From Vicinamibacteria bacterium (GTDB lineage: Bacteria; Acidobacteriota; Vicinamibacteria; Fen-336; JAGNNV01), in the NCBI GenBank assembly GCA_019694155.1, contig JAIBCN010000230.1, positions 3,536 through 67,535 on the forward strand: 64,000 bases of DNA, in the 5' to 3' direction. The number at the start of each line of letters is the position of its first letter. Position 1 is the stretch's first letter. Below are positions 13,801 to 29,024 of this stretch, one piece after another. A program made the translations under genes and the position numbers. The notes under the pieces were generated by a model. The model saw only the letters and a program-made list of their open reading frames with translations. It did not search any database and was not told where the DNA came from.

Positions 13801-16800
13801 ATGCTGAAACGAACGAGAGTTCTCTCTGCCTTGGTCCTAGCCAGCGCGCTGTCGTTGGCTCCGGCAGACGAGGTAGCCGCGCAAATCCAGGTGGACTGTA
13901 CGGTTGCGCCAATGTTCACGCCCAGCCCGAACTATTGCCTTGGTGTTCAATACGTGTTCCCACCGAACGCCTGTGGGTGCTCCAATCGGCTCTTCGCCAC
14001 GTCGTGCGGTGGGGGTGCGATTACGGGGACAACGCAGGGCGGCGTGGCCGGGTGTCTCCTTTCTTTGGCTTGCAACATCGTTGAAACGGAGACGCCCTGC
14101 AACGGCGTCCTTGAGCCCACGCGTCCTCCGAAGACGCCGAAGGTGCCCTGTCTGGATTGCGGTGAGCCCGTCAACGTGACGACGGGGACGATGTACTTCA
14201 CCCACCGCGACGCCACCATCGGACGCCTCTCGTTCACGCGTACCTTCAGCACGCAGCGATTGTCGGCAAATCGCTATGGGATGTTTGGGCCCGGCTGGAA
14301 CACCGACTTCGAAAAGCGGCTGAGGAGTCTGGGAACCGGCGTTCTCGAGTACCGCGACGCCGATGGCGAGCCCACGTATTTTCAGGATCGAGACCTCGAT
14401 GGGAACTTCGAACAGTATGTTCCTTTCGGAAAGGACTCTTGGATTCTGGACACCGGTGTGGGCTACCAGCTGGTGCGCCGCGCGGGCGGGCACGAAGACT
14501 ACTCGACCACCGGCGTGCTCCTTGCGGAGACGGACGCAGCGGGAACCACGACGACGTACGCCCGTGACGGCAGCGCCCGGCTGACTTCGGTGACCAGAGA
14601 GGGCCGATCGTTCACCCTCACCTATTCGGGCGCCAACCTCAAGCCCGCCACCCTTCAGGGACCGGGCGGCGAGACGCTTGCGACCTATACCTACGAAACG
14701 GCGTCGGGCCGACTTGCCGCGGTTGACTATCCGGAGAGCGCGGGCTATCGGTACACCTACACCTCGGACGGCAAGGTGAGCTTCGTTGACGACGCCGACG
14801 GACGGCCCAGTGAGGCTCACGAGTACGACGCGCAGGGGCGTGCCACCACCTCGGAGATCGGCGACGGCCGGCAGAAGCTCACCTTCTCATATGACACAGT
14901 GAACAAGAAGACGACCGTCACCGACGCGCTCGGGCGACAAACGATCTACGAGTTCCAACTCGTGAAGCACGCGCAGGTATTGAAGAAGCTCATAGGGCCA
15001 TGCGCCGGCGCATGCGGACCGGCGGATGAGACGCGCGAGTGGACGTATGACGCCAGCACCGGGACACTGACGACGATGAAGGACCAGGCGGGAAAGATCT
15101 GGAGCTACACCTATGATCCGGTGACCCTGGACATGCTGACGGAGACCGATCCCCTGGCGCAGGTCACGACCTATTCCTATGACGCGCAAGGGCGCATGCT
15201 CACGCGAACTGGGCCGGACGGAGCGGTCACGACCTACGTTCAGAGCGACGCTGGGCCGACCAGCATCACCCAGAAAGTGGCGGCTTCACCGCTGGTCACC
15301 CGAACGACGGCGATTGCGTACTACGCCACGGCGGATGCCAAAAACGGAAAGGTCCACACGATCCAGGATCCCCGGGGGAAGGTGACCACCATGGACTACG
15401 ACGCCACCAAGGGAGACCTCCTGTCGGTCACGGATCCGCTCGGCCACGCGACCACATTCGGCTACGACGAGTCGCCGAGCCCCGCTGGGAGGGGCTTGCG
15501 GACGAGTGTGACCGATGCCCTCGGCCATGTCACCAAGACGGTGTACGAAGGCCGCAACCGGGTGAAGAAAGTAGTCAATCACGACAACACGTTCACCGAG
15601 TTCGGATATGACGCGGCCGGACGCAGGTCGACGGTGACGGATCCCATGGGTCGGGTGACCCGATACATCTACGATCGATACGGGCGTCTCGATACGGTGG
15701 TGGATCCGATGAATCAGACCACGCGTTATTCATATGACCTGATGGGGAATCTGCTCACGCTCACGGATGCGAAGAGCCAGACGACGACGTTCGAGTATGA
15801 CAGCCACGACCGGGTGAAGAAGACAATCTACCCAGGCGGGGCGTATGAGACGTTCACGTACGACTCGCGGGGGAGGCTTGAGACGATGGTCGACCGGAAG
15901 AACGTGACCACGACCTACGCCTACGACGACCTCGGGAGGCTCTTGGGGAAGACGTTCTCGAACGACCCATCGAATACGCCGCCGTTCAGCTACACCTACG
16001 ATGCGGCGGGAAGGATGCTCACGGCCGCGAACGGGACGGATACCCTCACGTGGACCTACAACCTGGCGGGGGAGTTGCTGAGCGAGCAGAGCGTGAAGAA
16101 CGCCAGCACGGTCGCCTACACCTACGACGACGGCGGCAACCGGCTGTCGGTGAGCCTGGACGGGACGCTCTTCGTCACGTACGCCTACGACGACGCGTCG
16201 AGGCTCACGACGATCACCCGCGGATCGAACGTGTTCGGCTTCGCCTACGACAACGCAAACCGAAGAACCAGCATGAGTTATCCAAACGGAGTCGATACGA
16301 CGTACACGTACGACACGCTCAATCGCCTCACGAACCTCGCGGCGACGAAGACGAGCACCGGAACGCCGATCACGAACTTCGGCTACCAGTACGACGCCGC
16401 GGGCAACCGGACGCAGAAGTCCACCCTCGACTACACGGAGGACTATGGGTACGACCCCCTCTACCGCCTGACCCGCGCGGACCGCACGAACCCAGGCGCC
16501 ACCCCGCCGAATCAGTGGACGTGGAGCTACGACGCGGTGGGCAACCGGACGAGCGCCCAGAAGGACAACGAGGCGACCACGTCCACCCACAACGAGAAGA
16601 ACCAGCTGCTACAGACGAGCGGAGGGGGGAAGATGCTCTGGCGCGGGGTCCTGGACGAGCCCGGGACCGCGACGTTCAACGCGGCCTCTGCGTCGATCAA
16701 CGGTCAGCCCGCGAGGATGCTTGCGGGGAACGTGTTCGAAGCGACGCTGGACCTGCCCGCGGGAGCGAACACGGTGACGATTCAAGCGCAGGACGGGAGC

Positions 16801-17919
16801 GGGAATGTGTCGAGCAAGAGCTACTCGGTGAACGTGCTCGGCGTGCCCGCGACCTACACCTACGACGCGAACGGCAACCTCGCGACGAAGACGGAAGGCG
16901 CGGACGCGTGGGCCTATCAGTGGAACGCTCTGAATCAGCTGACCGCCGTCTCGAAGAACGGCGTGATGGTCGCGTCCTACGGATATGACCCCGACGGGCG
17001 GCGTGTTGAGAAGACCGGTCCCGGACGGCTTCTCGCATGGGTCTACGATGGCGAGGATGTCCTGCGCGAGACCTCGACGTCTAGCGGCGTCAATATCTAC
17101 CAATGGCATGTGCACGGCCACGGTATAGACGAACCGCTCGCGACGGAGACGCTCAACGGAGTGTCTTACAGACACGGTGATGCCATCAACGCGGACCGAC
17201 GTCTAACCGATGCAAGCGGCAATGTCCTCGGCGGAGTGTCTACGGACCCCTGGGGCAACGGGGACTCGTCCTCTATGGGACCTTATGGCTTCGGAGGGAG
17301 AGAATGGGATCCTGAGGCACAGATGCATTTCTTCAGAGCTCGGTGGTACGACCCAAAGATCGGGCGATTTATCTCAGAAGACCCAATTGGATCGAGGGGC
17401 GGCTCTAACCTATTCTCCTACGTCGATTCGTCACCCCCGAACTTCGTTGATTCGCTCGGCCTATTCAAGATGAGCGGCTTTCCGCGGGACGGAGTTGCGG
17501 TATCAAAAGTAATCGACGCGATGGCGGCCGTTCGCAGGAGACTGACTGAACAGCCCTGTTGTACGGCCGACGCGCCTGACATCCTGAACTACATGGAGAA
17601 CGTCGACGTCGACTTCAAGCCCGACCTAAACATCAAGCGACAGAAGAAAGGGCAGAAACTGGCCTGTGCAACTGCTCAAGACACGAATTTCTTCTTCTTC
17701 AAGGTCCGAAAGATCCACTTCGCCCCCGAATCGTTCGGCCCAGAATGCGCGGCGCTCTCTCTGGAATGCATGCTCGTGCATGAGTACACCCATTTCGTGA
17801 CGGGCTATTCCGATACTGACCCTCGATATCACGGCCGTGAGTACAAGAATCAATTCACGTGTTTCGGCTGCGGCGACGGCACGGTCCCGCCGGGCGAGGG
17901 ACCGCGGGGGAAAGAATGA
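13801..17919 (+). CDS. RHS/YD-repeat polymorphic toxin (Sec signal, no PAAR) with HExxH metallopeptidase-like C-terminal domain
   Basis: Signal peptide followed by a Cys-rich region and many YD repeats (TYTYDANGNL, YAYDDLGRL). The RHS core ends in RARWYDP..GRFISEDPIG..DSLGL. After the DPxGL boundary comes a ~150-aa lower-GC tip containing LVHEYTHF (HExxH). Confidence 0.85.
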   Translation: MLKRTRVLSALVLASALSLAPADEVAAQIQVDCTVAPMFTPSPNYCLGVQYVFPPNACGCSNRLFATSCGGGAITGTTQGGVAGCLLSLACNIVETETPCNGVLEPTRPPKTPKVPCLDCGEPVNVTTGTMYFTHRDATIGRLSFTRTFSTQRLSANRYGMFGPGWNTDFEKRLRSLGTGVLEYRDADGEPTYFQDRDLDGNFEQYVPFGKDSWILDTGVGYQLVRRAGGHEDYSTTGVLLAETDAAGTTTTYARDGSARLTSVTREGRSFTLTYSGANLKPATLQGPGGETLATYTYETASGRLAAVDYPESAGYRYTYTSDGKVSFVDDADGRPSEAHEYDAQGRATTSEIGDGRQKLTFSYDTVNKKTTVTDALGRQTIYEFQLVKHAQVLKKLIGPCAGACGPADETREWTYDASTGTLTTMKDQAGKIWSYTYDPVTLDMLTETDPLAQVTTYSYDAQGRMLTRTGPDGAVTTYVQSDAGPTSITQKVAASPLVTRTTAIAYYATADAKNGKVHTIQDPRGKVTTMDYDATKGDLLSVTDPLGHATTFGYDESPSPAGRGLRTSVTDALGHVTKTVYEGRNRVKKVVNHDNTFTEFGYDAAGRRSTVTDPMGRVTRYIYDRYGRLDTVVDPMNQTTRYSYDLMGNLLTLTDAKSQTTTFEYDSHDRVKKTIYPGGAYETFTYDSRGRLETMVDRKNVTTTYAYDDLGRLLGKTFSNDPSNTPPFSYTYDAAGRMLTAANGTDTLTWTYNLAGELLSEQSVKNASTVAYTYDDGGNRLSVSLDGTLFVTYAYDDASRLTTITRGSNVFGFAYDNANRRTSMSYPNGVDTTYTYDTLNRLTNLAATKTSTGTPITNFGYQYDAAGNRTQKSTLDYTEDYGYDPLYRLTRADRTNPGATPPNQWTWSYDAVGNRTSAQKDNEATTSTHNEKNQLLQTSGGGKMLWRGVLDEPGTATFNAASASINGQPARMLAGNVFEATLDLPAGANTVTIQAQDGSGNVSSKSYSVNVLGVPATYTYDANGNLATKTEGADAWAYQWNALNQLTAVSKNGVMVASYGYDPDGRRVEKTGPGRLLAWVYDGEDVLRETSTSSGVNIYQWHVHGHGIDEPLATETLNGVSYRHGDAINADRRLTDASGNVLGGVSTDPWGNGDSSSMGPYGFGGREWDPEAQMHFFRARWYDPKIGRFISEDPIGSRGGSNLFSYVDSSPPNFVDSLGLFKMSGFPRDGVAVSKVIDAMAAVRRRLTEQPCCTADAPDILNYMENVDVDFKPDLNIKRQKKGQKLACATAQDTNFFFFKVRKIHFAPESFGPECAALSLECMLVHEYTHFVTGYSDTDPRYHGREYKNQFTCFGCGDGTVPPGEGPRGKE
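16448..16935 (+). repeat. direct repeat (copy 1) shared with orphan rhs cassette at 22451..22935
   Basis: Nucleotide alignment is near-identical across about 480 nt (GGGTACGACCCCCTCTACCGCCTGACCCGCGCGGACCG... through ...GGAAGGCGCGGACGCGTGGG), with a short diverged patch around the two-thirds point. Confidence 0.8.
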
Positions 17920-18353
17920 ACTTTTCAGTGAGATGTCTCGCAATCGCTTTGCTTTTCCTGCCCGCGCCTTCGTCGGCGTTCACCTGCATGCCCATTCGGC
18001 TCCTAGTCGAGGTACCCTCCCCTGAAGCGGGCTGGGCTTTGGACTTCGTCGCGAAGCCCGACCGCAAGACCCTAAAGGTCGCCCGCGAAGATGCGACTTC
18101 CATGACGTACGCGGTCTTCTTCGACACCCTTCGTGTGCGACCAGGCAAGGCGCAGGACTGCTCATGGGAGCCTTCGTCTCTTGTCGTTCGAATTCGTCAC
18201 GAGGATGGGACGGTGCGGGAGGATCAGATTCCATTCCCTCAGGGCTTTGTCCGAATTGAGGGAACCGCCCGGAGCTTCCGAGCGACGCGGCGCGCCTCTC
18301 TCGCTGAAAAACCGCCCGGCCTCAGTAAGGGCCCAGAAACCCCTCGCCGTTGA
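17916..18353 (+). CDS. putative cognate immunity protein for the RHS HExxH toxin (secreted)
   Basis: ATGA overlap with the rhs stop (ATG 17916, TGA 17917-19). Signal peptide [21 protein letters not shown]. 145 aa with no recognisable domain. Confidence 0.5.
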
Positions 18354-18414
18354 AGTGAATCAGATGGGTCGGGGATTCGGCCACCCAAACCTCGGTCTCC
18401 CAGGCGATATCGGT

Positions 18415-18490
18415 CTTCGCGCATCCGGGCGTCCGTGGTCACGGCCCCTCGCGCCTGGAGGCCCGGGGCGGACTAGCGGGGCTACGGCCG
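18415..18490 (+). other. conserved intergenic element, copy 1 (paralogous copy at 20885..20960)
   Basis: About 70 nt, roughly 80-85% identical to copy 2: GCAkCCGGGCGTCCGTGGTC.CG..CC.TCGCGCCTGGAGGC.CGGGGCGG. The CCGGGCG / CGCCUGG potential stem is conserved. Lies 30 nt upstream of gene A. Confidence 0.3.
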
Positions 18491-18520
18491 TAGGAGGGCG
18501 AAAGGGATAGCCATGAGAGG

Positions 18521-19249
18521 GTGCGAACGCAGATGCTCCAACGGCGTCTGGTCTCGATCGAAATGAGCCGATCGAAGCGCAGAGCACGGACCATCCAGCG
18601 AGATCAGGACATCGTGGATCTGCTCCAGCGAAGTGCCGGCGGCGCGGCATCTCTGAGCGATAGAGTCCACTACGACAGAGAGATCCAGCGCCTGGGAGCA
18701 GAGCTTGCCACAGCGAATGAGGCGTTCCAGTCTGACCTCAAGGAAGAGTACCAGCTGCGCTTGCTCGTGGTCGAGGAAGAGGGAAACCTGCTGCTGGACA
18801 TCCGCGCCCTTGAAGACGAGAACTCCCGTCGGGCCGGGCGTCCCACGCACCTTGAGCAGGCACGAGATGCCCTGCGACGACTACCCGAGGTGCCTGTGGA
18901 GCTCATGCACGCCGTCCCTTTTTGGACCGAGACGGACCTCGGATCTCTTCGGCCTCTGCCATCGCCTCACGCCCTGAATCAATATGAAAGATCCGTCGGT
19001 CGGGCCATTGAACGCTTCGGGCTGATGTCGAGTTGCGTGGAAGACTTCATTGAAGCGACCAGACTCAGGGAGTCCTTGGGGCACGTACCGCCAGGGACGG
19101 CTGACAGGGCCAAGGTTGATTTCGCCACCAATCAGGCGCAGATTCGCGTTGGACTGGACCAGATGGCGTTGCTGCCTCCCAGAATGCGAGCGGACCGGGC
19201 AGCCAATCTCGCGAAGCGCGCAGCCCTCGTCGCAGCATTGAAGCTCTGA
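18521..19249 (+). CDS. hypothetical protein (gene A; upstream partner of HEPN-like protein)
   Basis: 242 aa and protein-like, with GC lower than the flanks. Its stop overlaps the start of the next gene (TGATG). Confidence 0.45.
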   Translation: MRTQMLQRRLVSIEMSRSKRRARTIQRDQDIVDLLQRSAGGAASLSDRVHYDREIQRLGAELATANEAFQSDLKEEYQLRLLVVEEEGNLLLDIRALEDENSRRAGRPTHLEQARDALRRLPEVPVELMHAVPFWTETDLGSLRPLPSPHALNQYERSVGRAIERFGLMSSCVEDFIEATRLRESLGHVPPGTADRAKVDFATNQAQIRVGLDQMALLPPRMRADRAANLAKRAALVAALKL

Positions 19250-19914
19250 TGGTGGTCCATCTGCGTCGCCGCGGCCACAGACTCGAAGGGCTGGTCAACC
19301 GGTTCTGTTGGCATATCGAGAAGACCCAGAAGTACGTGACTGTCGTCATGCCTGCGATTAAGCAGCAAGATGATCCGGGTGTCGAGCAGTACCTATTCCA
19401 GTCTCTGGCCTTGATGCTTCACTCCTACATGGAGGACTTTTTCAAGGGTGTCATCAGAACAGCGGCGCCAAATCGCCCGATGGAATTGCGTGAGCATATG
19501 AGCACGTACTATTCCGAGGACATCAAGGGATCTGGAACTCTTCACATTCTTGAGCTCGCCCGGATGGCCGCGAAGCGCGAGGTGTCGTTCGAAAGGAAGG
19601 CCGAACGACTGAAGCGGGTCTTTCGTGTGCTTTTCGACGCTGATCCGTTTTGCGACGCGGAAGCCGAGTCCGACTGCCTCGACCTAGTCGTGGTTCGAAA
19701 CACCATTACGCACGACGGGGCGTGGCCCGATGGAAGAGTCCACCAGAGCCTCTCCCGGAAAGACATCGTCGTCGAAACTACCCTCGTGAACGGGGCGAGC
19801 TTCTACACACTCCAGATTCCGCCGCAGTTCTTTGCGAACGTGCTGGCAGGCCTTGGCAGAAGCGTCCTCGATTTGGACCGGCAGCTCCGAGAACACCCGG
19901 TCTATCGAATATGA
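19249..19914 (+). CDS. HEPN-like domain protein (gene B; RNxxxHxG motif) - candidate RNase toxin / abortive-infection effector
   Basis: 221 aa. LDLVVVRNTITHDGAW matches the HEPN R-[NHQ]-x3-H-x-G signature. GC is markedly lower than the locus average. Translationally coupled to gene A. Confidence 0.4.
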   Translation: MVVHLRRRGHRLEGLVNRFCWHIEKTQKYVTVVMPAIKQQDDPGVEQYLFQSLALMLHSYMEDFFKGVIRTAAPNRPMELREHMSTYYSEDIKGSGTLHILELARMAAKREVSFERKAERLKRVFRVLFDADPFCDAEAESDCLDLVVVRNTITHDGAWPDGRVHQSLSRKDIVVETTLVNGASFYTLQIPPQFFANVLAGLGRSVLDLDRQLREHPVYRI

Positions 19915-19968
19915 CCTTGAAATCCCCGCAGCTGTCACAACAGAAGGGACCCCAGCCCAAGGAGAGGC

Positions 19969-20667
19969 GTGATGAGCCCAGATGCACCTCTGAATAGTCG
20001 CGACGTTGTCCTCCTGCCGTACCTGCGCCTTGTTGGCAGGCTCTCCGTGGGTCCTTGGGAAGTGATTCCGCGGCCCGAGCTGACGCGGGCTGACACCACG
20101 ACCCAGCAGGTGTTCGAGGTGGTGCCCAAGTATCTCGACCTCTATGCCATCCCGAAGCATCAACCAAGAGAGAAGTGGGGTTGCCTTGTGAAGAAGAAGG
20201 CCGTTCGCTTTGGCGACTTCGTGGAGCGGCACGAGCTGGTGCCAGTACACCATGCGATTCTGGTTGGTGTGCTCGCCAGCAACCCAGAAGCGAACGCGAG
20301 GAACCCCGGTCGCTCAATGTCGACGTCAGAGAGCTGCATGATGTTCGGCCACCCGATCAGCGAGGAAGGTCGAGTCTCGGTCGAAAACGGGGCGATGTTC
20401 CACCAGGTTGTCGTTGCCGGGCTCAGGCTGGGCGACGATGACGGCTACGTCAGCCACCCCACGTCGCTCTGCGCTCCTTGGGACGGCAACCAGGTTGACG
20501 AAGCTCTTGCAGCCGCGACGCATACTGCTTTGACGCTGGGCACGGAAGGCGCCCGGCGCCTGTCGACCGCGATTGAATGGCTCCAAACGGTCTGGATGAA
20601 TACCGAGGCTGTAAGTTGGGACGTGCGCGTCATGGCACTGAAGGCAGCCTGGGTGAGAGCCACGTGA
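19969..20667 (+). CDS. hypothetical protein (gene C)
   Basis: 232 aa with coding-like codon bias and lower GC than the flanks. No recognisable domain. Confidence 0.4.
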   Translation: MMSPDAPLNSRDVVLLPYLRLVGRLSVGPWEVIPRPELTRADTTTQQVFEVVPKYLDLYAIPKHQPREKWGCLVKKKAVRFGDFVERHELVPVHHAILVGVLASNPEANARNPGRSMSTSESCMMFGHPISEEGRVSVENGAMFHQVVVAGLRLGDDDGYVSHPTSLCAPWDGNQVDEALAAATHTALTLGTEGARRLSTAIEWLQTVWMNTEAVSWDVRVMALKAAWVRAT

Positions 20668-20884
20668 TGATCGCTCAAAGGCGGTTGTTGGAAGTCATTC
20701 GGAAGCTGGTCTAGACGGGCGCGATGATCGGAACGTCCGCCACCGCGACCTGGGCCAGCAGGGCAAGCTGTGCCTGCACCCGTTCTCTGGAGATTGCCCC
20801 GTGTTGAGTAGCGGGTGGGTCGGTGAGCGAGTGGTCGCACACGCGTGGTACGGGGGCGCGCCGTCGTTTGTGGCCTTGCACATG

Positions 20885-20960
20885 CGGGCTGTCGAGCCTC
20901 GCGCAGCCGGGCGTCCGTGGTCGCGATCCATCGCGCCTGGAGGCTCGGGGCGGCTCGGCG
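20885..20960 (+). other. conserved intergenic element, copy 2 (see 18415..18490)
   Basis: Aligned to copy 1. Located 220 nt downstream of gene C and 220 nt upstream of gene D. Confidence 0.3.
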
Positions 20961-21176
20961 GGGCTGTGACTGACGGCGTGCGGCTGAGTTGCCTTTCCGA
21001 GGACGCGAGTGGCCTGCTCGGGATGCTGGACTTCACTACGCGCCGCGTCAAGGCTGCTCCGCTGCGCTCCGCACTTTTTTGCTTCGCAAAAAAGCCTTCG
21101 GGCCTGGACACGGCCCTACGTGAAGTCGTGATGAGAGGGCGCAGGCCACTTTCGGCCTGCGGAAAGGCAACCTCTC

Positions 21177-21716: not shown

Positions 21717-22231
21717 TGAGCGCTGAACTCTCACTTCAGCAGGCCGGGGCTTCCGCCCCGGCCGTTTCCGCTTCGCAGTCGGCCGCTGGGCCTGGTGCCG
21801 AGCTTGCAGCAGTCCTCGCCGGTTCGGCCGCGGCGGAGTCCGCCGCTCGCGAGGACTCGATCCTCCTCGACGCTGAGAAGCTCGAGGTCTACGCGTTGGC
21901 CTTGGAGCTTCACGCATTCGCCGCATCGAAGGTCCCCACGCTGAGCCGTGTCCTCAAGGACCAGCTTGAGCGTGCCAGCCTCAGCGTGGTCTTGAACATC
22001 GCAGAGGGCGGGGGCCGTCGAAGCCGCAAGGACAAGTCGCGGCACTACACGTACGCGCGAGGCAGCGCCACGGAGGTTGCTGCCTGCTTCGACGTGCTCA
22101 AGATCCGGAAGCTCGCTCCGGCGTCCGAGTGCGCTCGTGGCCGAACCCTCGCGCTGCGCGTGGTCCAGATGCTCACGAAGCTCTGCGCATCACTTCAGCC
22201 GAAGTCCACCGAAGCGCAGGAGGCGGCTTGA
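21716..22231 (+). CDS. four-helix-bundle protein (23S rRNA intervening-sequence / Avd-like family)
   Basis: C-terminal 120 aa (LEVYALALELHAFA..LKDQLERASLSVVLNIAEGGGRRSRKDKSRHYTYARGSATEVAACFDVLKIRKL) matches the four-helix-bundle, DGR-Avd-like family. The N-terminal Ala/Ser-rich extension leaves the start uncertain. Confidence 0.55.
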   Translation: MSAELSLQQAGASAPAVSASQSAAGPGAELAAVLAGSAAAESAAREDSILLDAEKLEVYALALELHAFAASKVPTLSRVLKDQLERASLSVVLNIAEGGGRRSRKDKSRHYTYARGSATEVAACFDVLKIRKLAPASECARGRTLALRVVQMLTKLCASLQPKSTEAQEAA

Positions 22232-22431: not shown

Positions 22432-23868
22432 TCGTCACCCAGCCACACCCTCGGGTACGACCCCCTCTACCGCCTGACCCGCGCGGACCGCACGAACCCA
22501 GGCGCCACCCCGCCGAATCAGTGGACGTGGAGCTACGACGCGGTGGGCAACCGGACGAGCGCCCAGAAGGACAACGAGGCGACCACGTCCACCCACAACG
22601 AGAAGAACCAGCTGCTACAGACGAGCGGAGGGGGGAAGATGCTCTGGCGCGGAACGTTGAGCGAGCCCGGGACGGCGACGTTTAGCGCAGCCTCGGCGTC
22701 GATCAACGGCCAGCCCGCGAGGATGCTTGCGGGGAACGTGTTCGAAGCGACGCTGGATCTGCCCGCGGGAGCGAACACGGTGACGATTCAAGCGCAGGAC
22801 GGGAGCGGGAATGTGTCGAGCAAGAGCTACACGGTGAACGTGCTCGGCTCTCCCGCGACCTACACCTACGACGCGAACGGCAACCTCGCGACGAAGACGG
22901 AAGGCGCGGACGCGTGGGTCTACACCTGGAACGCGCTGAATCAGCTGATTGCGGTAACGAAGAACGGCGTGACGCAGGCGACGTATGCCTACGACCCTGC
23001 CGGAAGGCGCGTTCAGAGATCGGCGAGCGTGACCACGACTTGGACCTACGACGACGAAGACGTCATTCGCCAGGCTGCTGGTCCCGTGGTATCGCTTGTT
23101 CTTCACGGGCCCGGCGTCGACGAGACGCTTGCAACTGAGGCACAGGGGATTACGACGTTCCTGCAAGTGGACGGCCTCGGATCCATTGTTCGTCATACGT
23201 CAACGTCTGGCGCCGTCGCGCAATCCGTTGGGTACGATGCTTGGGGCGTTGCCACTAGCACGGCCCCAGACACGTATGGTTTCACGGGAAGAGAGTGGGA
23301 CGCCGATGTGGCTCTCTATTACCTCCGCGCACGGTGGTACGACCCGAGGAGCGGCGGTTTCCTTGGGCCGGACCCGTCGATGACCCCTGGCCTTCCCGGA
23401 CACTACCTTTATGTGGGTGCCAACCCAACGGGATTCAGGGATCCGTCGGGACTGAAGCGCGAAGCGACGTGGATCGACCCGCCGGGCATCAAGGACTTCT
23501 CAGCTACGTATCAAGGGCCGATATATCCGGGGGAGTATTGGTCCCTCTTCCCGCCACAGGTCGGACTATATGGCGAATGGTGGCTCTTCAAAGGGAATGT
23601 CTCAGGGACAGTGAAATGCACGGATACTGACAAGTGTGCTGGGGATCAAACGAAGATCAAGAGTGTCAAGCTTCCGATCTGGAAGACCATTGGCATCGGG
23701 GTTGGAATGACAATGTATCCGTACATTCACTACATGAAGCGAGGCAAGCACATCATTGACGCCTTCCAGGAGGCCTACGACGCCTACTACAATTACTGGG
23801 TCCAGATCGCGAAGAACATGCTTGAAGATCCGATGACGTGGTGTCGAGTCCTCGGGGGGTTCAACTGA
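22432..23868 (+). CDS. orphan rhs C-terminal cassette (5'-truncated RHS core + alternative lower-GC C-terminal toxin domain)
   Basis: Homology to the main rhs begins at LGYDPLYRLTRADRT. The RHS core ends RARWYDPRSGGFLGPDP..DPSGL and is followed by a ~135-aa tip at about 50% GC with no motif recognised. There is no N-terminal signal or repeats. The upstream in-frame part of ORF 22129.. is probably non-coding. Confidence 0.7.
   Translation, partial: SSPSHTLGYDPLYRLTRADRTNPGATPPNQWTWSYDAVGNRTSAQKDNEATTSTHNEKNQLLQTSGGGKMLWRGTLSEPGTATFSAASASINGQPARMLAGNVFEATLDLPAGANTVTIQAQDGSGNVSSKSYTVNVLGSPATYTYDANGNLATKTEGADAWVYTWNALNQLIAVTKNGVTQATYAYDPAGRRVQRSASVTTTWTYDDEDVIRQAAGPVVSLVLHGPGVDETLATEAQGITTFLQVDGLGSIVRHTSTSGAVAQSVGYDAWGVATSTAPDTYGFTGREWDADVALYYLRARWYDPRSGGFLGPDPSMTPGLPGHYLYVGANPTGFRDPSGLKREATWIDPPGIKDFSATYQGPIYPGEYWSLFPPQVGLYGEWWLFKGNVSGTVKCTDTDKCAGDQTKIKSVKLPIWKTIGIGVGMTMYPYIHYMKRGKHIIDAFQEAYDAYYNYWVQIAKNMLEDPMTWCRVLGGFN
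22451..22935 (+). repeat. direct repeat (copy 2) of rhs segment 16448..16935
   Basis: See copy 1. Identity decays gradually 3' of about 22935 while protein-level RHS-core similarity continues. Confidence 0.8.
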
Positions 23869-24508: not shown

Positions 24509-25735
24509 CTATGCGGGCTGGAGGTAGGGAAATCGACGCGCGACCCGATCGAGCCACGCGACGCGCATTGGCGGCGGTCCGTGATTGATGCCGGGTCTTG
24601 CGCGTGGCGGCTGGATGGCGGTCGCGGCCTTCGGTTGGACTCCGGCCAAACGCTCAGCCGGAGTGGCGCCATCGAGAGAGTAGATCGGTCGCTGGTAGGT
24701 GTAGTAGTTCAGGGCCGCGGCGAGCCGCTCTTCGAAGTCTGACAGCGTGAGCGGCTGCGCGAGGGGAAGGCCCATCAGCCAATCGAGAGTTCTCCAGAAG
24801 CGCTCGATGAGCCCGGTGATCGTGGTCCTGCCCGGGCTGCCGAGGCGTATCCGCGAACCCAGGCGCTTGGCTGCCATTCTGAAGGCGCCCTTGAACTCCG
24901 GTCCTCCGTCTATGGCGACGTACCGCGGCCTTCCCCAGGCTGCGGCTACGCGCTTCAGCAGCCTTGCTGCCGCGTCCGCGGTCGGAGGCGTCGCCGAGGC
25001 GTGGATGCCGAGTGGAGCCTGGGAGTAGGCGTCAAGGACCCCAGTGACCCAGAACTTCCGGAAGCCGAGGAAGCTCTTCACCTCGTGAGAGTCGAGGATG
25101 AAGACATGGCCAACGAACGTCGCCTTGAGGGGCATGCGGCTCGAGGAATCCGGAAGGTCGGGTGAGGCTTCCGTGGGTTCGCTCTTGAGGACGCTCTCCA
25201 CGTAGCTCTTCGAGACCTTCCATCCACCACGCGCGACGTGGGCCGCGATCTGATGAGCGCGTCCGAGGTGGAGGCGTTCCGCCAGGCGCACCAGCGCGCG
25301 GACGACATCGGCGTATCGGCGGATGGGCGGGTCGGGTTGGATGTCGGGGCCGACGGTTTGCCGCGCGGGATCGGCGGCGTCTTCCCACCGTGTGAAGGTG
25401 GTGGGAGTGACGACGAACTGAGCGGCGGCCTCCTCGATCGACCAGCCCATTGTCTGACGCAACTGGAGGGCCTTGAAGCGCGCAGGGCCGGAGTAATGGG
25501 GACGCTTCTTGGGAGCGATCTTCCGAAGCCGCGTCTGGAACGTCTCGACCATCTCGGTGAGGATTCCGTTCCGGGTTTCGAGTTCCTTGATGCGGGCAAG
25601 GGCCATCGTGAGCGCATCATCAGAGAGGCGGAGGCGCCGGAGTTGAGCGTCGAGGGCACAGCCCAGGATGCGAACGGCTCTCAAAGTCGCCTTGGACGCA
25701 ATCTTCTCGGCAGCCTCGTGAATGCGCAGGTTCAT
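24509..25735 (-). CDS. DDE transposase (integrase-core rve domain; IS481/IS3-superfamily-like)
   Basis: Start MNLRIHEAAEKIA. N-terminal HTH with coiled coil, and C-terminal rve/rve_3-like YTYQRPIYSLDGATPAERL. Confidence 0.7.
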   Translation of the reverse strand: MNLRIHEAAEKIASKATLRAVRILGCALDAQLRRLRLSDDALTMALARIKELETRNGILTEMVETFQTRLRKIAPKKRPHYSGPARFKALQLRQTMGWSIEEAAAQFVVTPTTFTRWEDAADPARQTVGPDIQPDPPIRRYADVVRALVRLAERLHLGRAHQIAAHVARGGWKVSKSYVESVLKSEPTEASPDLPDSSSRMPLKATFVGHVFILDSHEVKSFLGFRKFWVTGVLDAYSQAPLGIHASATPPTADAAARLLKRVAAAWGRPRYVAIDGGPEFKGAFRMAAKRLGSRIRLGSPGRTTITGLIERFWRTLDWLMGLPLAQPLTLSDFEERLAAALNYYTYQRPIYSLDGATPAERLAGVQPKAATAIQPPRARPGINHGPPPMRVAWLDRVARRFPYLQPA

Positions 25736-26122
25736 GAGGCGAGCATGGCGGACCGAGCGTGCCTGGCCCTCAGGCGCGGTACCGCGGGGCGCGAGGACCC
25801 CGCGGGCGGAGGCCAAAGCACCGTTCCCGAACGGAGTGGGGCCCAAGGCTCCTCTGAGTCAAAGCGGGGCGGTCAGCCCCGCTCCATTCATTGAAGACGA
25901 CATTGGGCCCCACGTATGTGAGGGAACGCCCGGGTGCTTTGGCCGCAGCATGACCACGCGGCCGCGGTGTTCACGGATGGCCCGCGGTCGGCGCGGTGGC
26001 TTTCGCGGGATTGCTTCGTCGCACTACCGACGGAATGGCTCCTCGCAATGACGGGGGGTGCCTCTCCCCGAAGCGCGGAGGAGGCTGGGCGGTGCGGTTC
26101 GCAATGACGTGGGCGGGGCGTT

Positions 26123-26900
26123 TCACCTCACCGAGGAGCGTCGCTCGCGAAAGTGCTCGCGCCATTCGGCGGAGCGGTAGCGGATGACCTTGAGCAGCGC
26201 GAGATCGACTCGCTTCGCGTCGCCGAGGGCTTCGGCGTCGTAGAGGTCGAAGCCGTCGGGCTGGAAGGAGAGGGTCAGGTACTGGCCGTATTGAACCGCG
26301 TTCTGCATGTCCTCGAAGCTCGGGACGTCGCCGCCGGTCCAGTTGCCGTTCGCGTCGTGGGGGGCGTGGGTGTGCCAGCCTCCCACGTAGCGGCCATGCC
26401 AGTCGGTGCTGGTGATGAGGGCCAGTTGTTCCTCGGGGCCGAGGGAGTAGGTGGGGGCGGCGTTTTGGGCCACGGTGAGAAGGGCGCGCCTCACTTCCTC
26501 TGCGCTGCCGGGTGAGCCGAGGCGGAAGCGCGCCACTGCGACTTTGATGAGGCCGTGGGTGTCGACCTTGGCGACTTCGGCCGCGCGGGTTTCGCACAGC
26601 GAGGCGATGGCTTTGGGGTCTCCGGCGACTTTGACGAGGTCCTGGACCGTCGACCACCGCGGGTCGCGGGCCTCGACTAGGCGCAGCTCCTTGTCGATGG
26701 TCGCTTCGCCTCCGGTTTCCGGGGTGAGCCACTTGGGACCGATCCGCACGCCGCGCTCGATCATGGCCTCGAAGAGCGCGCGGATCCGATCGACGGAGGC
26801 GGGTGAGAGAGCGGCCGCGCGGAGCTGGCGTGGGTGATGGGGTTGTTCTTCGGGGCGGCGAGGCCATGCCACTGGTCGAGGCGCGAGAGGGTTCGCGCCA
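26123..26900 (-). pseudogene. fragment (C-terminal ~260 aa) paralogous to secreted protein gene 29076..30146, fused in frame to a truncated transposase
   Basis: About 88% nt identity to 29121..29880. Homology breaks, with a frameshift, near 26860-26900. Confidence 0.5.
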
Positions 26901-27039
26901 TGGTGGCTGAGACTTTGATCGCACCGGCGGCCTGGCGGGATTGCTTCGTCGGGCGGTCTACCGAACCCTCCTCGCAATGATGGAGGAGTGTCTCGTTGAT
27001 TCCTTGCCCCGACCGACATCGCGACCGATGGCATGGGCG

Positions 27040-27787
27040 GGCTCGCCGAGGCGTGGATGCCGAGTGGAGCCTGCGAGTAGGCGTCGAAAACGCCAGTGAT
27101 GAAGAACTTCCGGAAGCCGAGGAAGTTCTTCACCTCGTGAGAGTCGAGGATGAAGACATGGCCAACGAACCTGGCCTTGAGGGGCATGCGGCTCGATGAA
27201 TCGGGCAGGTCGGGCGAGGCCTCCTCGGGCTCGCTTCTGAGCACGCTCTCGACGTAGCTCTTGGAGATCTTCCAGCCGCCACGCGCGACGTGAGCGGCGA
27301 TCTGGTGGGCGCGTCTCATGCCGAGGCGCTCGGCAAGGCGCACCAAATTGCGAACAACGTCGGCATACCGCCGGATGGGCGGGTCGGTTTGGATGTCGGG
27401 TCCCACGGTTTGTCGAGCGGGGTCGGCGGCGTCCTCCCACCGCGTGAAGGTGGTGGGAGTGACGAGGAATTGAGCGGCGGCTTCCTCGATCGACCAGCCC
27501 ATAGTCTGGCGCAGCTGGAGAGCCCTGAACCGCGCGGGGCCGGAGTAGTGGGGACGCTTCTTGGGAGCGATCTTCCGAAGCCGCGTCTGGAACGTCTCGA
27601 CCATCTCGGTGAGGATTCCGTTCCGGGCTTCGAGTTCCTTGATTCGGGCGACGGCCTGCGTGAGCGCGTCATCGGAGATGCGGAGGCGACGGAGTTGTGA
27701 ATCGAGGACCCGGGCGAGGATCCGAACGGCTCCGAGTGTCGCTCTTGTGGCGATGGCCTCGGCCGCATCGTGCAGGCGCAGGTTCAT
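27040..27787 (-). pseudogene. truncated transposase paralog (N-terminal ~250 aa only; catalytic rve core missing)
   Basis: Start MNLRLHDAAEAIA. About 80-85% nt identity to 24985..25735 and ends abruptly at about 27040. Part of chimeric ORF 26123..27931. Confidence 0.55.
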
Positions 27788-27878
27788 GAGGAGAGCACCC
27801 CCTTTTGCAGGTTCCCGAAGGGGATCGGCTCGCAAGGAAGACCGAGCGCATTTCGCCAAGGACGGAATGGCTCCGCCC

Positions 27879-29024
27879 TCAGAGATCCTCCGCGATCCTC
27901 GACGCCGCAAGCGCCGTGATGTCCTTCGCAAGCGGGAAGGTCTCTACTCCCGCGTGGATGATGTACGCATGGCGCAGCCCGAGCACGGAGATTGCCGATC
28001 GGAGGGACTTCGTGACTTGCGGCGCGCTCGTGCGCTTCGCCTCGAACCCGATGCGCCTCGATCCTCTGATCCAGAGCATGTCGAGCTCGGCGCCGCCATG
28101 AGTGGCCCAGAAGAACGTCTCCGAGGAGTCGGCCTCGACCCGGGCCGCCGCCTGCTGAAGCACGAATCCTTCCCACGAGGCGCCGAGGAGAGGGTGGCGC
28201 TCGAGGTCGCGGAGCGTCGGGATTCCCAGGAGGGCGTGAAGAAGGCCGGAGTCGCGGATGAGAACCTTCGGCGCTTTGACCTGGCGACGGTCGATGTTGA
28301 CGTGCCAGGGCTTGAGGGTGCGCACCACGAGCGCCTTTTCCAGGATCTCGAGGTAATGGCCCACCGTTCCCTCACTGACCGCGAGCGAGCGGGCCAGCTC
28401 GGCCGCGTTCCAGGTGCGCGCGTGGTAGTGGGCGAGCATGCTCCAGAAACGCGAGAGGCGCGGCGCTTCGATGCGGATGCCGAGCTGGGGGATGTCCCGC
28501 TCGATGAATGTGCGGATGAACGCCCGTCGCCATTCCAGGCTTCGCGCTTCGGAAGGCGCCGCGTAGCTTCGCGGAAAGCCGCCGCGGAGCCAGAGACGAT
28601 TGAGGTGCGGCGCGCCCACGTCGCGGAGACGCAGCCCTTCGAGGGTGTGGTAGGCGATGCGTCCGGCGAGGCTCTCCGACGACTGCCGGAGCAGCTCTGG
28701 CGATGCGCTCCCCAGGATGAGAAAGCGGGCGGGCAGGGGGTGGCGGTCGGCGAGGACGCGGAGGGTTTCGAAAAGGCCCGGGCGGCGCTGGATCTCGTCG
28801 AGGATCACAAGGCCGCGAAGGGGCTTGAGGGCAAGGCCCGGGTCCGAGAGCCGGGCGAGGTCGTCCGGATCCTCGAGGTCGAAGCTCTCCACCGAGCGGC
28901 TGGCCGCCGCGATCTGGCGGGCCAGGGTTGTCTTGCCCGATTGGCGCGGTCCCAGGAGAGCCACGACGGGGAAGTGCCCGAGAAGTCGGCGAACGGCAGA
29001 GATCTCGTCAAGCCGCGGAATCAC
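27879..29024 (-). CDS. AAA+ ATPase (DUF4143 family)
   Basis: Walker A LLGPRQSGKTTLARQ, Walker B ILDEIQR, and the C-terminal DUF4143-like region. Confidence 0.7.
   Translation of the reverse strand: MIPRLDEISAVRRLLGHFPVVALLGPRQSGKTTLARQIAAASRSVESFDLEDPDDLARLSDPGLALKPLRGLVILDEIQRRPGLFETLRVLADRHPLPARFLILGSASPELLRQSSESLAGRIAYHTLEGLRLRDVGAPHLNRLWLRGGFPRSYAAPSEARSLEWRRAFIRTFIERDIPQLGIRIEAPRLSRFWSMLAHYHARTWNAAELARSLAVSEGTVGHYLEILEKALVVRTLKPWHVNIDRRQVKAPKVLIRDSGLLHALLGIPTLRDLERHPLLGASWEGFVLQQAAARVEADSSETFFWATHGGAELDMLWIRGSRRIGFEAKRTSAPQVTKSLRSAISVLGLRHAYIIHAGVETFPLAKDITALAASRIAEDL

Follow-up and report, generated by a model that had tools for sequence, protein, structure and literature searches.

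In the survey of polymorphic toxins by Zhang et al. 2012, small Wss1-like zincin domains were predicted as tips of RHS toxins, and a Sec-dependent class of toxins was described (PMC3482391). The domains termed Tox-MPTase1-5 are HExxH zincin-like domains of ~130-150 aa that are located at the RHS C-terminus and are distantly related to Wss1-like peptidases, some of them Sec-dependent ('T2SS'), and the available part of the table names no immunity protein for either Tox-MPTase1 or Tox-MPTase2 (PMC3482391). In Pseudomonas aeruginosa, VgrG2b is an HExxH zinc metallopeptidase that is toxic in the periplasm only and is neutralized by the immunity protein PA0261, encoded adjacent to VgrG2b, which needs its signal peptide and DsbA and has conserved DsbA-dependent Cys residues (Wood et al. 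2019, PMC6899460). Wss1 and SprT, in turn, are themselves minigluzincin-like (PMC4559962). Here we analyzed a module that resembles these systems in a 64-kb stretch of DNA from a Vicinamibacteria bacterium (contig JAIBCN010000230.1 of GenBank assembly GCA_019694155.1, positions 3,536 to 67,535, forward strand), hereafter called the window, in which a gene for an RHS/YD-repeat protein with an HExxH-bearing C-terminal tip is followed by an overlapping open reading frame (ORF). In the reading that we favor, and that we consider fairly probable, this module is a Sec-exported RHS polymorphic toxin, independent of type VI secretion (the T6SS), with a zincin-like tip and an exported immunity protein. 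The RHS polymorphic toxin kind itself is well known; the tip family and its cognate immunity family are new. To our knowledge, very few metallopeptidase tips have been tested so far. Unless stated otherwise, positions are those of the window, tip numbering restarts at the first residue of the 151-aa tip, and P and L labels denote relatives and loci obtained from protein searches and a metagenome scan.

Judged from its sequence, the tip is a member of a new, extremely rare Cys-rich family, with about nine members found among billions of proteins. An exhaustive phmmer search of 1.84 billion representative proteins (cut-off E<=1e-3) returned eight matches, five of which were genuine (P0001, P0003, P0004, P0006 and P0007; E 4e-7 to 8e-5) and the others low-complexity repeats, and in three of the five genuine relatives the tip was preceded by a DPxGL-type junction. 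Two further relatives were obtained by profile search (P0009 and P0010) and another by the metagenome scan (L039); for scanning loci, tip profile A1 was too variable, and it was the narrower profile A5 that yielded the additional locus. In P0001, P0004, P0007, P0009 and L039 the domain begins directly past the RHS junction with a common G-F-P-P-D start, and the junction motifs among the tip relatives were DSLGL, DLLGL, DPFGL, DPYGL and DPRGL. A profile hidden Markov model (HMM) of the family from which the window copy had been left out recovered aa 1229-1369 of the RHS toxin with an E of 7.8e-23 and matched nothing else in the window. With the tip alone as query, no homologue was found in a word-indexed search that covered 5.8 billion clusters, and a sequence search of the PDB gave chance matches to EGFR and arrestin only. 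Searches of plasmid and phage collections gave no relative, a protein-pattern search of the GTDB species-representative genomes found none either, and the 30 matches to a degenerate DNA pattern for CFGCGTGK were all due to chance by HMM check. Since these pattern searches were empty, the family is absent from the species-representative genomes or too divergent there.

The alignment of the nine members (A6, window copy counted) showed the conserved elements P-C-C, three more single Cys, L-E-C-T-x-L-H-E-x-x-H, Y/W-x-x-E and C-F-G-C-G-T-G. The HExxH motif is found in 8/9 members (P0003 has DExxH), and in the RHS toxin it is the HEYTH sequence, which occurs only once in the protein (aa 1327-1331, nt 17779-17793). 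Seven Cys positions are conserved across the family in the pattern PCC...C...C...C...CxxC, and in the toxin as a whole there are 10 Cys in aa 29-121, two in the 1100 aa of repeats and seven in the 151-aa tip. In P0007 and P0010 the Cys of 'LEC' is gone and an adjacent upstream 'CC' is gained, a compensatory pattern that suggests that disulfides are formed in this family. Seven is an odd number, and a Cys left unpaired could serve as a cysteine switch of the kind seen in Wss1. Two other assignments of these residues were considered and rejected. Deaminases require an H/C-x-E spacing and PCxxC; the 'H-E ... CxxC' of the tip was not read as deaminase-like, given that the motif is an HExxH on a single helix. 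The CxxC was likewise not taken as a zinc ribbon, the sole support being a Pfam Zn_ribbon_DnaG match at E 0.37.

The fold of the tip was then considered. AlphaFold with the single sequence gave a predicted local distance difference test score (pLDDT) of 35, and AlphaFold2 with a 6-sequence alignment gave a pLDDT of 86.7 and a predicted template modeling score (pTM) of 0.84 across all five models. In the latter, helices 11-29 and 37-46 are followed by strands 48-51, 69-76 and 79-86 and then by helices 100-113 and 125-134. H106, E107 and H110 sit on helix 100-113, after the three-stranded sheet, and the Y..E position is on helix 125-134, with E126 and H122 near Q130 in the window copy. As modeled, this order of elements matches the minimal zincin layout. 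Foldseek of the model against the PDB gave no significant match (best E 0.5), and the structures with the highest template modeling (TM) scores (0.39-0.43, not significant) were the peptidase domains of clostridial M9 collagenases. Against the viral structures of BFVD, the matches ranged from E 1.8e-3 to 0.3 (TM 0.38-0.49), with probabilities as high as 1.0, and the named ones were all zincins (a putative peptidase, M34, IrrE-N, several SprT-like, a matrixin and a 'zincin protease'). The sole PDB match of the tip-family profile was the minigluzincin projannalysin (4JIX), whose E improved from 0.47 to 0.073 with nine sequences; in this alignment, which runs from the strand over the HExxH helix to the Glu helix, Y/W-x-x-E falls on the FENE of projannalysin. 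Sub-threshold Pfam matches of the family were to SprT-like (E 0.13) and DUF2268 (E 0.037). Each of these matches is weak, yet they are mutually consistent in pointing to a zincin.

The initial annotation had assigned the tip to the Tox-MPTase type and had proposed a zincin-fold check. What stood of this was the conserved HExxH on a predicted zincin-like fold with the expected AlphaFold topology. The profile and structure matches were weak, and no match to the Pfam models Tox-MPTase2-5 was obtained for the tip alone or for six family members, even at E<=10 (Tox-MPTase1 has no model). Hence, the tip can be called a small Wss1/SprT-like zincin at an RHS C-terminus in the generic sense only, outside the curated Tox-MPTase families, from which it also differs by its seven conserved Cys and its own exported immunity family. 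It resembles the minigluzincins (projannalysin and proabylysin) and SprT/Wss1 (PMC4559962) in size, in element order and in having an HExxH plus a downstream Glu helix, with matches that are sub-significant. Unlike what is predicted for the tip, they reside in the cytoplasm or the nucleus and are no toxins; the Cys pattern occurs in the tip family alone, and the window copy has Gln in place of the Glu.

The ORF that follows the toxin gene had been proposed to encode a secreted immunity protein with a 4-nt overlap, and the overlap was borne out, as was, by heuristic, the export signal. Its ATG at 17916 overlaps the RHS stop codon (17917-19) as ATGA, and its product carries an N-terminal leader with a cleavage-like site before FTC; this leader and that of the toxin were judged by eye and by Kyte-Doolittle hydropathy. 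The same 145-aa gene was annotated by an independent gene caller on contig L038, a Logan assembly of run SRR1027651 that is 100% identical to window 17249-21074. Conservation of the ORF beside homologous tips, which had been set beforehand as a test, was observed in 7/8 independent loci (the window, L001, L002, L003-6, L007, L039 and L040), where a homologous protein of 133-145 aa is encoded directly after the tip. The tip and immunity genes overlap by 4 nt in L001, by 8 nt in L002 and L007, and as ATGA in L039, and the L040 homologue was recognized by the family HMM with an E of 3.8e-30. When the window copy was left out of the immunity HMM, its ORF still ranked first among 787 window ORFs (E 0.0019, versus 0.67 for the next). 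A hydrophobic leader is common to the members of this family, often with a lipobox (LVAC or LSAC); they further share an A-K-C motif soon after the leader, the motif F-D-x-T-R...D-C-S-x-x-P-x-x-V, and two conserved Cys. No relatives were detected in Pfam or the PDB, and PADLOC recognized neither the tip nor the immunity protein, nor any of the three genes downstream. The downstream ORF is a member of a new signal-peptide/lipobox family, whose place directly after the tip is what one would expect of an exported immunity protein. By analogy, the closest functional precedent for the pair would be the C-terminal domain of VgrG2b with PA0261. VgrG2b differs in being a VgrG fusion delivered by a T6SS, whereas the window tip is predicted to be carried on a Sec-exported RHS shell, and no sequence or Foldseek similarity of the tip to VgrG2b was detected.

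The body of the toxin agreed with the proposal of a 1372-aa RHS/YD polymorphic toxin with a Sec-type leader and a Cys-rich N-terminus, as seen from the ORF, the domain matches and the hydropathy heuristic (Table 1). The protein starts with MLKRTRVLSALVLASALSLAPADEVAA, followed by Q, and has three K/R residues and then a 12-aa stretch (aa 7-18) with a mean Kyte-Doolittle value of 2.2, so that its N-terminus looks signal-peptide-like, with n-, h- and c-regions visible. In the Sec-dependent 'T2SS class' toxins, a cleavable N-terminal signal peptide is the sole trafficking signature (PMC3482391, Table 1). For the Cys-rich region that follows, no Pfam match was found within the N-terminal 133 aa, and no homologue was found in the word-indexed search. 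DUF6531 is the usual N-terminal element of RHS shells, and the repeats behind it matched Pfam RHS_repeat 15 times (E 9e-70) and NCBIfam YD_repeat_2x/TIGR01643 (E 3e-51). An Ig-like insertion (Glucodextran_B-like, sub-threshold) lies in the shell shortly before the core (aa 960-1011, nt 16678-16833). The core had been described as ending in DPxGL; its actual terminus is PPNFVDSLGL at aa 1221 (nt 17463), a variant with Ser for Pro that is also present in P0001. The Asp residues of YDP, EDP and VDSLGL are all found in the toxin, and the Rhs core is presumed, from what is known of the family, to be an aspartyl autoprotease with its cleavage site at DSLGL. On this sequence evidence, the locus can be taken as a true RHS/YD polymorphic toxin locus with repeats, Rhs core, a variable tip with an adjacent immunity gene, and orphan cassettes.

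The tip had also been described as a HEYTH-bearing domain of ~150 aa with a lower GC content than the core and as a separate, exchangeable cassette, and both statements found support. Its GC is 0.567, versus 0.624 for the remainder of the RHS gene, and the sliding comparison placed it below all 453-nt sub-windows of the core (minimum 0.578) and within the lowest 1.7% of such sub-windows across the whole stretch; the drop is real but modest. A truncated orphan RHS end is located 4.5 kb downstream; its opening 522 nt share 94.8% identity with 16447-16966 in the main gene, and it also keeps the Ig-like insertion (ORF 22129, aa 187-237). Its unrelated tip and the following ORF (Table 1) probably form a second envelope-acting toxin-immunity pair. 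Tip replacement by recombination with orphan Rhs ends is established in Salmonella, and the direct repeats shared with the orphan fragment mean that homologous recombination would replace the tip. Elsewhere, the tip-immunity pair follows a mere stub of RHS core in L002 and L007, and in L003-6 the tip is truncated and stands downstream of another RHS end, which has its own transmembrane immunity gene. In L040 the pair adjoins another orphan tip and two tyrosine recombinases. The GC drop, the orphan copies in other loci, and the orphan fragment with its direct repeat in the window together indicate that the tip and the immunity gene are a mobile cassette. As further observations at these loci, L003 3-1398 encodes the other RHS end (DPLGL, then VSRAADCSQCC...), with an unrelated Cys-rich tip and a 78-aa immunity-like ORF with two transmembrane segments, and L040 1669-3989 encodes an orphan C-terminal fragment (...DPTGL, then WDWPTT...) followed by two genes of the phage-integrase family.

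Table 1. Coordinates of the toxin module and of the features around it in the window.
Feature	Position	Strand	Basis or remark
RHS/YD-repeat polymorphic toxin gene, 1372 aa	13801..17919	+	ORF call, Pfam, NCBIfam
Sec-type signal peptide (inferred), aa 1-28	13801..13884	+	K/R-rich n-region, hydrophobic core, cleavage-like site VAA/Q
Cys-rich N-terminal region, aa 29-121, 10 Cys	13885..14163	+	Cys count; without detectable homologues
DUF6531, aa 121-194	14161..14382	+	Pfam E 1.4e-12
YD/RHS repeat shell, 15 Pfam repeat matches	14383..17244	+	Pfam, NCBIfam
Rhs-associated core domain, aa 1149-1221, ends DSLGL	17245..17463	+	TIGR03696 E 1e-19
Toxin tip, 151 aa	17464..17916	+	Tip-family profile, alignment, predicted fold
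Exported immunity candidate, 145 aa	17916..18353	+	ATGA overlap with toxin stop, family HMM
Giant secreted protein, 2126 aa	7402..13782	+	8x CHB_HEX_C_1/Fn3-associated modules, RCC1 beta-propeller, TSP3 repeat
Direct repeat copy 1, 522 nt	16447..16966	+	94.8% identity to 22453-22972
5'-truncated orphan RHS C-terminal fragment, core ends DPSGL	22453..23868	+	ORF and repeat comparison
Unrelated 137-aa tip of orphan fragment, without known domain	23455-23865	+	Domain search
117-aa ORF with N-terminal transmembrane or signal segment	23870..24223	+	Likely immunity gene of orphan tip
Two transposase-like genes (rve integrase core; HTH_23)	24509..27931	-	Flank RHS island

Upstream of the toxin gene, at a distance of 18 nt and in the same reading frame with one TAG between, lies the gene of a giant secreted protein. 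The order in L001 is that of the window (CHB_HEX/RCC1 giant gene, RHS, tip, immunity gene), at 35-40% identity, and this recurrence suggests a functional pairing. In L001 1-8000, on a 301-kb contig from the ENA, the giant and RHS genes are split among the three reading frames, probably through indels of a long-read assembly and not true pseudogenization. The giant gene and the RHS gene may form one operon, and the giant protein could play the role of a surface partner; readthrough of the TAG into the RHS gene is conceivable, though the latter has its own leader. Downstream of the immunity gene, three co-oriented genes without family match (18521-20667; 242, 221 and 232 aa) precede the orphan fragment; their GC at third codon positions (GC3) is below that of the flanking core genes, and the middle one gave a weak match to HEPN_RiboL-PSP (E 0.007). 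A gene of the 23S rRNA intervening-sequence family (four-helix bundle, 21800-22231) abuts the start of the orphan fragment, and an AAA/DUF4143 gene is located at 27879-29024(-). From the giant gene to the transposases (7400-29000) GC3 is 0.66-0.80, versus 0.80-0.92 for most genes in 30000-64000, and the RHS region looks like an acquired island. The window has no tRNA. Its second half (34000-54700) contains a large exopolysaccharide/O-antigen-type cluster, which comprises several glycosyltransferases (GT4 and GT2), a Wzy-like protein and WecG together with an acyltransferase and a nucleotidyl transferase. A sigma-54 response regulator and then a PAS/GAF histidine kinase come after it, and elsewhere there are peptidases, two-component and sigma-54 regulators and a Ser/Thr kinase.

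A number of observations weigh against the reading of this module as a zincin-tipped toxin with an exported immunity protein. The tip has no match among Pfam, NCBIfam, PADLOC or PDB families. The Glu of Y-x-x-E, present in 8/9 members, is Gln in the window copy (Y-K-N-Q; Q130, codon CAA at nt 17851-17853), and a 5-residue loop insertion stands ahead of it. With this exchange, which was confirmed by the independent Logan assembly, the third zinc ligand, and hence full activity, is uncertain in the window tip. As for the immunity gene, the tip of L041 is not accompanied by a recognizable homologue and has a 67-aa lipobox ORF there instead, and the window protein is the most divergent of its family, with marginal similarity to the others (BLASTP E 6e-4 and 5e-3). 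The tip exchange raises the alternative that the fold is zincin-like and the window copy, or even the whole family, is not a protease, and instead binds or blocks an envelope target, performs another metal chemistry, or is a decaying allele. The Gln, the loop insertion, the position of the window tip as the most divergent of the nine aligned members, the DExxH of P0003, and the lack of a significant match to any characterized peptidase would all fit this explanation. We nevertheless regard it as unlikely, given that the H, E and H of the HExxH are intact in the window tip, that the toxin gene has its full length and its coupled immunity gene is intact, and that the other members keep the HExxH...E signature. 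With the Glu missing, the window tip could be weakened, or could use another ligand such as H122 or E126; the latter lies one helical turn from Q130 and could substitute. In a similar manner, the 145-aa ORF might encode an exported accessory factor for toxin folding, disulfide formation or release, and not an immunity protein, which would agree with the low similarity among members and with the two conserved Cys, the immunity role being itself a prediction. This is improbable, since one would not find an accessory factor of the RHS body together with orphan tips, whereas the ORF accompanies truncated orphan tips that have no such body (L003-6, L002 and L007); its position and translational coupling are also those of immunity genes.

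The route of delivery was weighed in the same way. The initial annotation had excluded a T6SS because there is no PAAR or VgrG nearby. Among about 45 ORFs across the 64 kb we likewise found none with a match to PAAR, VgrG, Hcp or any other T6SS family of Pfam. For the 64 kb viewed, the leader and the lack of a PAAR make delivery by another route reasonable to assume. Most studied Gram-negative Rhs toxins are T6SS cargo, and a VgrG/PAAR spike encoded elsewhere in the genome, beyond these 64 kb, might load the effector. T6SS Rhs effectors, however, have a PAAR or other spike-binding domain and/or VgrG, Hcp or Eag neighbors; the toxin has a Sec-type leader and a Cys-rich region in place of such a domain, no Eag chaperone gene accompanies it in the window, and we judge loading on a spike very improbable. 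The giant gene could instead point to an anti-eukaryotic toxin of the Tc type, in which the giant protein would bind and translocate and the RHS protein would be the capsule around the cargo, the targets being amoebae, fungi or nematodes. The proximity of the secreted beta-propeller protein and its recurrence in L001 would fit, and Tc toxins, as is well established, use RHS shells (PMC3482391, Table 1). On the other hand, the TcB/TcC type has SpvB, an integrin-like beta-propeller and a TcA partner, whereas the RHS protein has neither SpvB nor a TcB-type propeller and the giant protein has an RCC1 propeller and no TcA-like domains. In addition, the orphan tip-immunity cassettes and the gene for an exported immunity protein, tightly coupled and co-varying, bear the marks of an interbacterial toxin, and this explanation is quite improbable.

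Nearer at hand are Sec-dependent polymorphic toxins whose immunity genes lie downstream and which also have orphan cassettes, namely WapA of Bacillus subtilis and MafB/MafA of Neisseria (PMC3482391). WapA differs by its monoderm source, tRNase tips and cytoplasmic immunity proteins, and MafB by having no RHS shell. In MafB, the leader is followed by a lineage-specific domain, and a conserved secreted partner, MafA, is encoded in the same operon. In the window, the Cys-rich N-terminal region parallels that domain, and the giant protein encoded upstream parallels that partner; as a speculation from two loci, by analogy with MafA/MafB (PMC3482391), we offer both as candidates for surface anchoring. 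A further step, which we put forward as distinctly unlikely, would be that the giant protein and the Sec-exported RHS toxin, with its Cys-rich N-terminal domain, form a two-component, T6SS-independent contact-delivery system of a diderm that brings a disulfide-locked minimal zincin into the periplasm of neighbors. In such a system the giant protein (CHB_HEX/LamG-like modules) would anchor or present the RHS capsule, by analogy with MafA/MafB or TcA/TcBC, and the toxin might be kept latent through a cysteine switch of the seventh, unpaired conserved Cys.

Returning to the Sec-exported toxin with a zincin-like tip, we infer the following course for export, autoproteolysis, zinc binding and proteolysis, site of action and immunity. 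The signal peptide would carry the RHS toxin across the inner membrane. DUF6531, the YD repeats and the Rhs core are expected to build a closed shell around the C-terminal 151-aa cargo, and the aspartyl protease of the core, as in its family, would cut after DSLGL and free the tip. The cargo is predicted to be a disulfide-rich minimal zincin-like domain of the SprT/Wss1/minigluzincin type, and most likely a zinc metallopeptidase whose target lies in the envelope of competing bacteria, in the periplasm or at the cell surface. From the translationally coupled gene an exported and, in some relatives, lipid-anchored immunity protein would be made, which probably blocks the toxin by binding it within the periplasm of the producer itself. 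Taken together, the Sec leader, the disulfide-rich cargo and the exported or lipid-anchored immunity protein predict that the toxin acts in the cell envelope. The tip and the immunity gene would move jointly, and the 522-nt tract shared with the orphan end would let tips swap by recombination.

As neither the tip family nor the immunity family is in Pfam or NCBIfam, two new profiles become available for annotation, to be used with the caution that the window copy bears the Glu-to-Gln change. The locus is a clean example of the poorly understood RHS toxins of Gram-negative type that carry no T6SS signature. If the tip is a protease, it could be used to search for an essential substrate in the periplasm or the outer membrane. 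The main interest of the module lies in its being an experimentally tractable RHS toxin that is predicted to act in the envelope without a T6SS.

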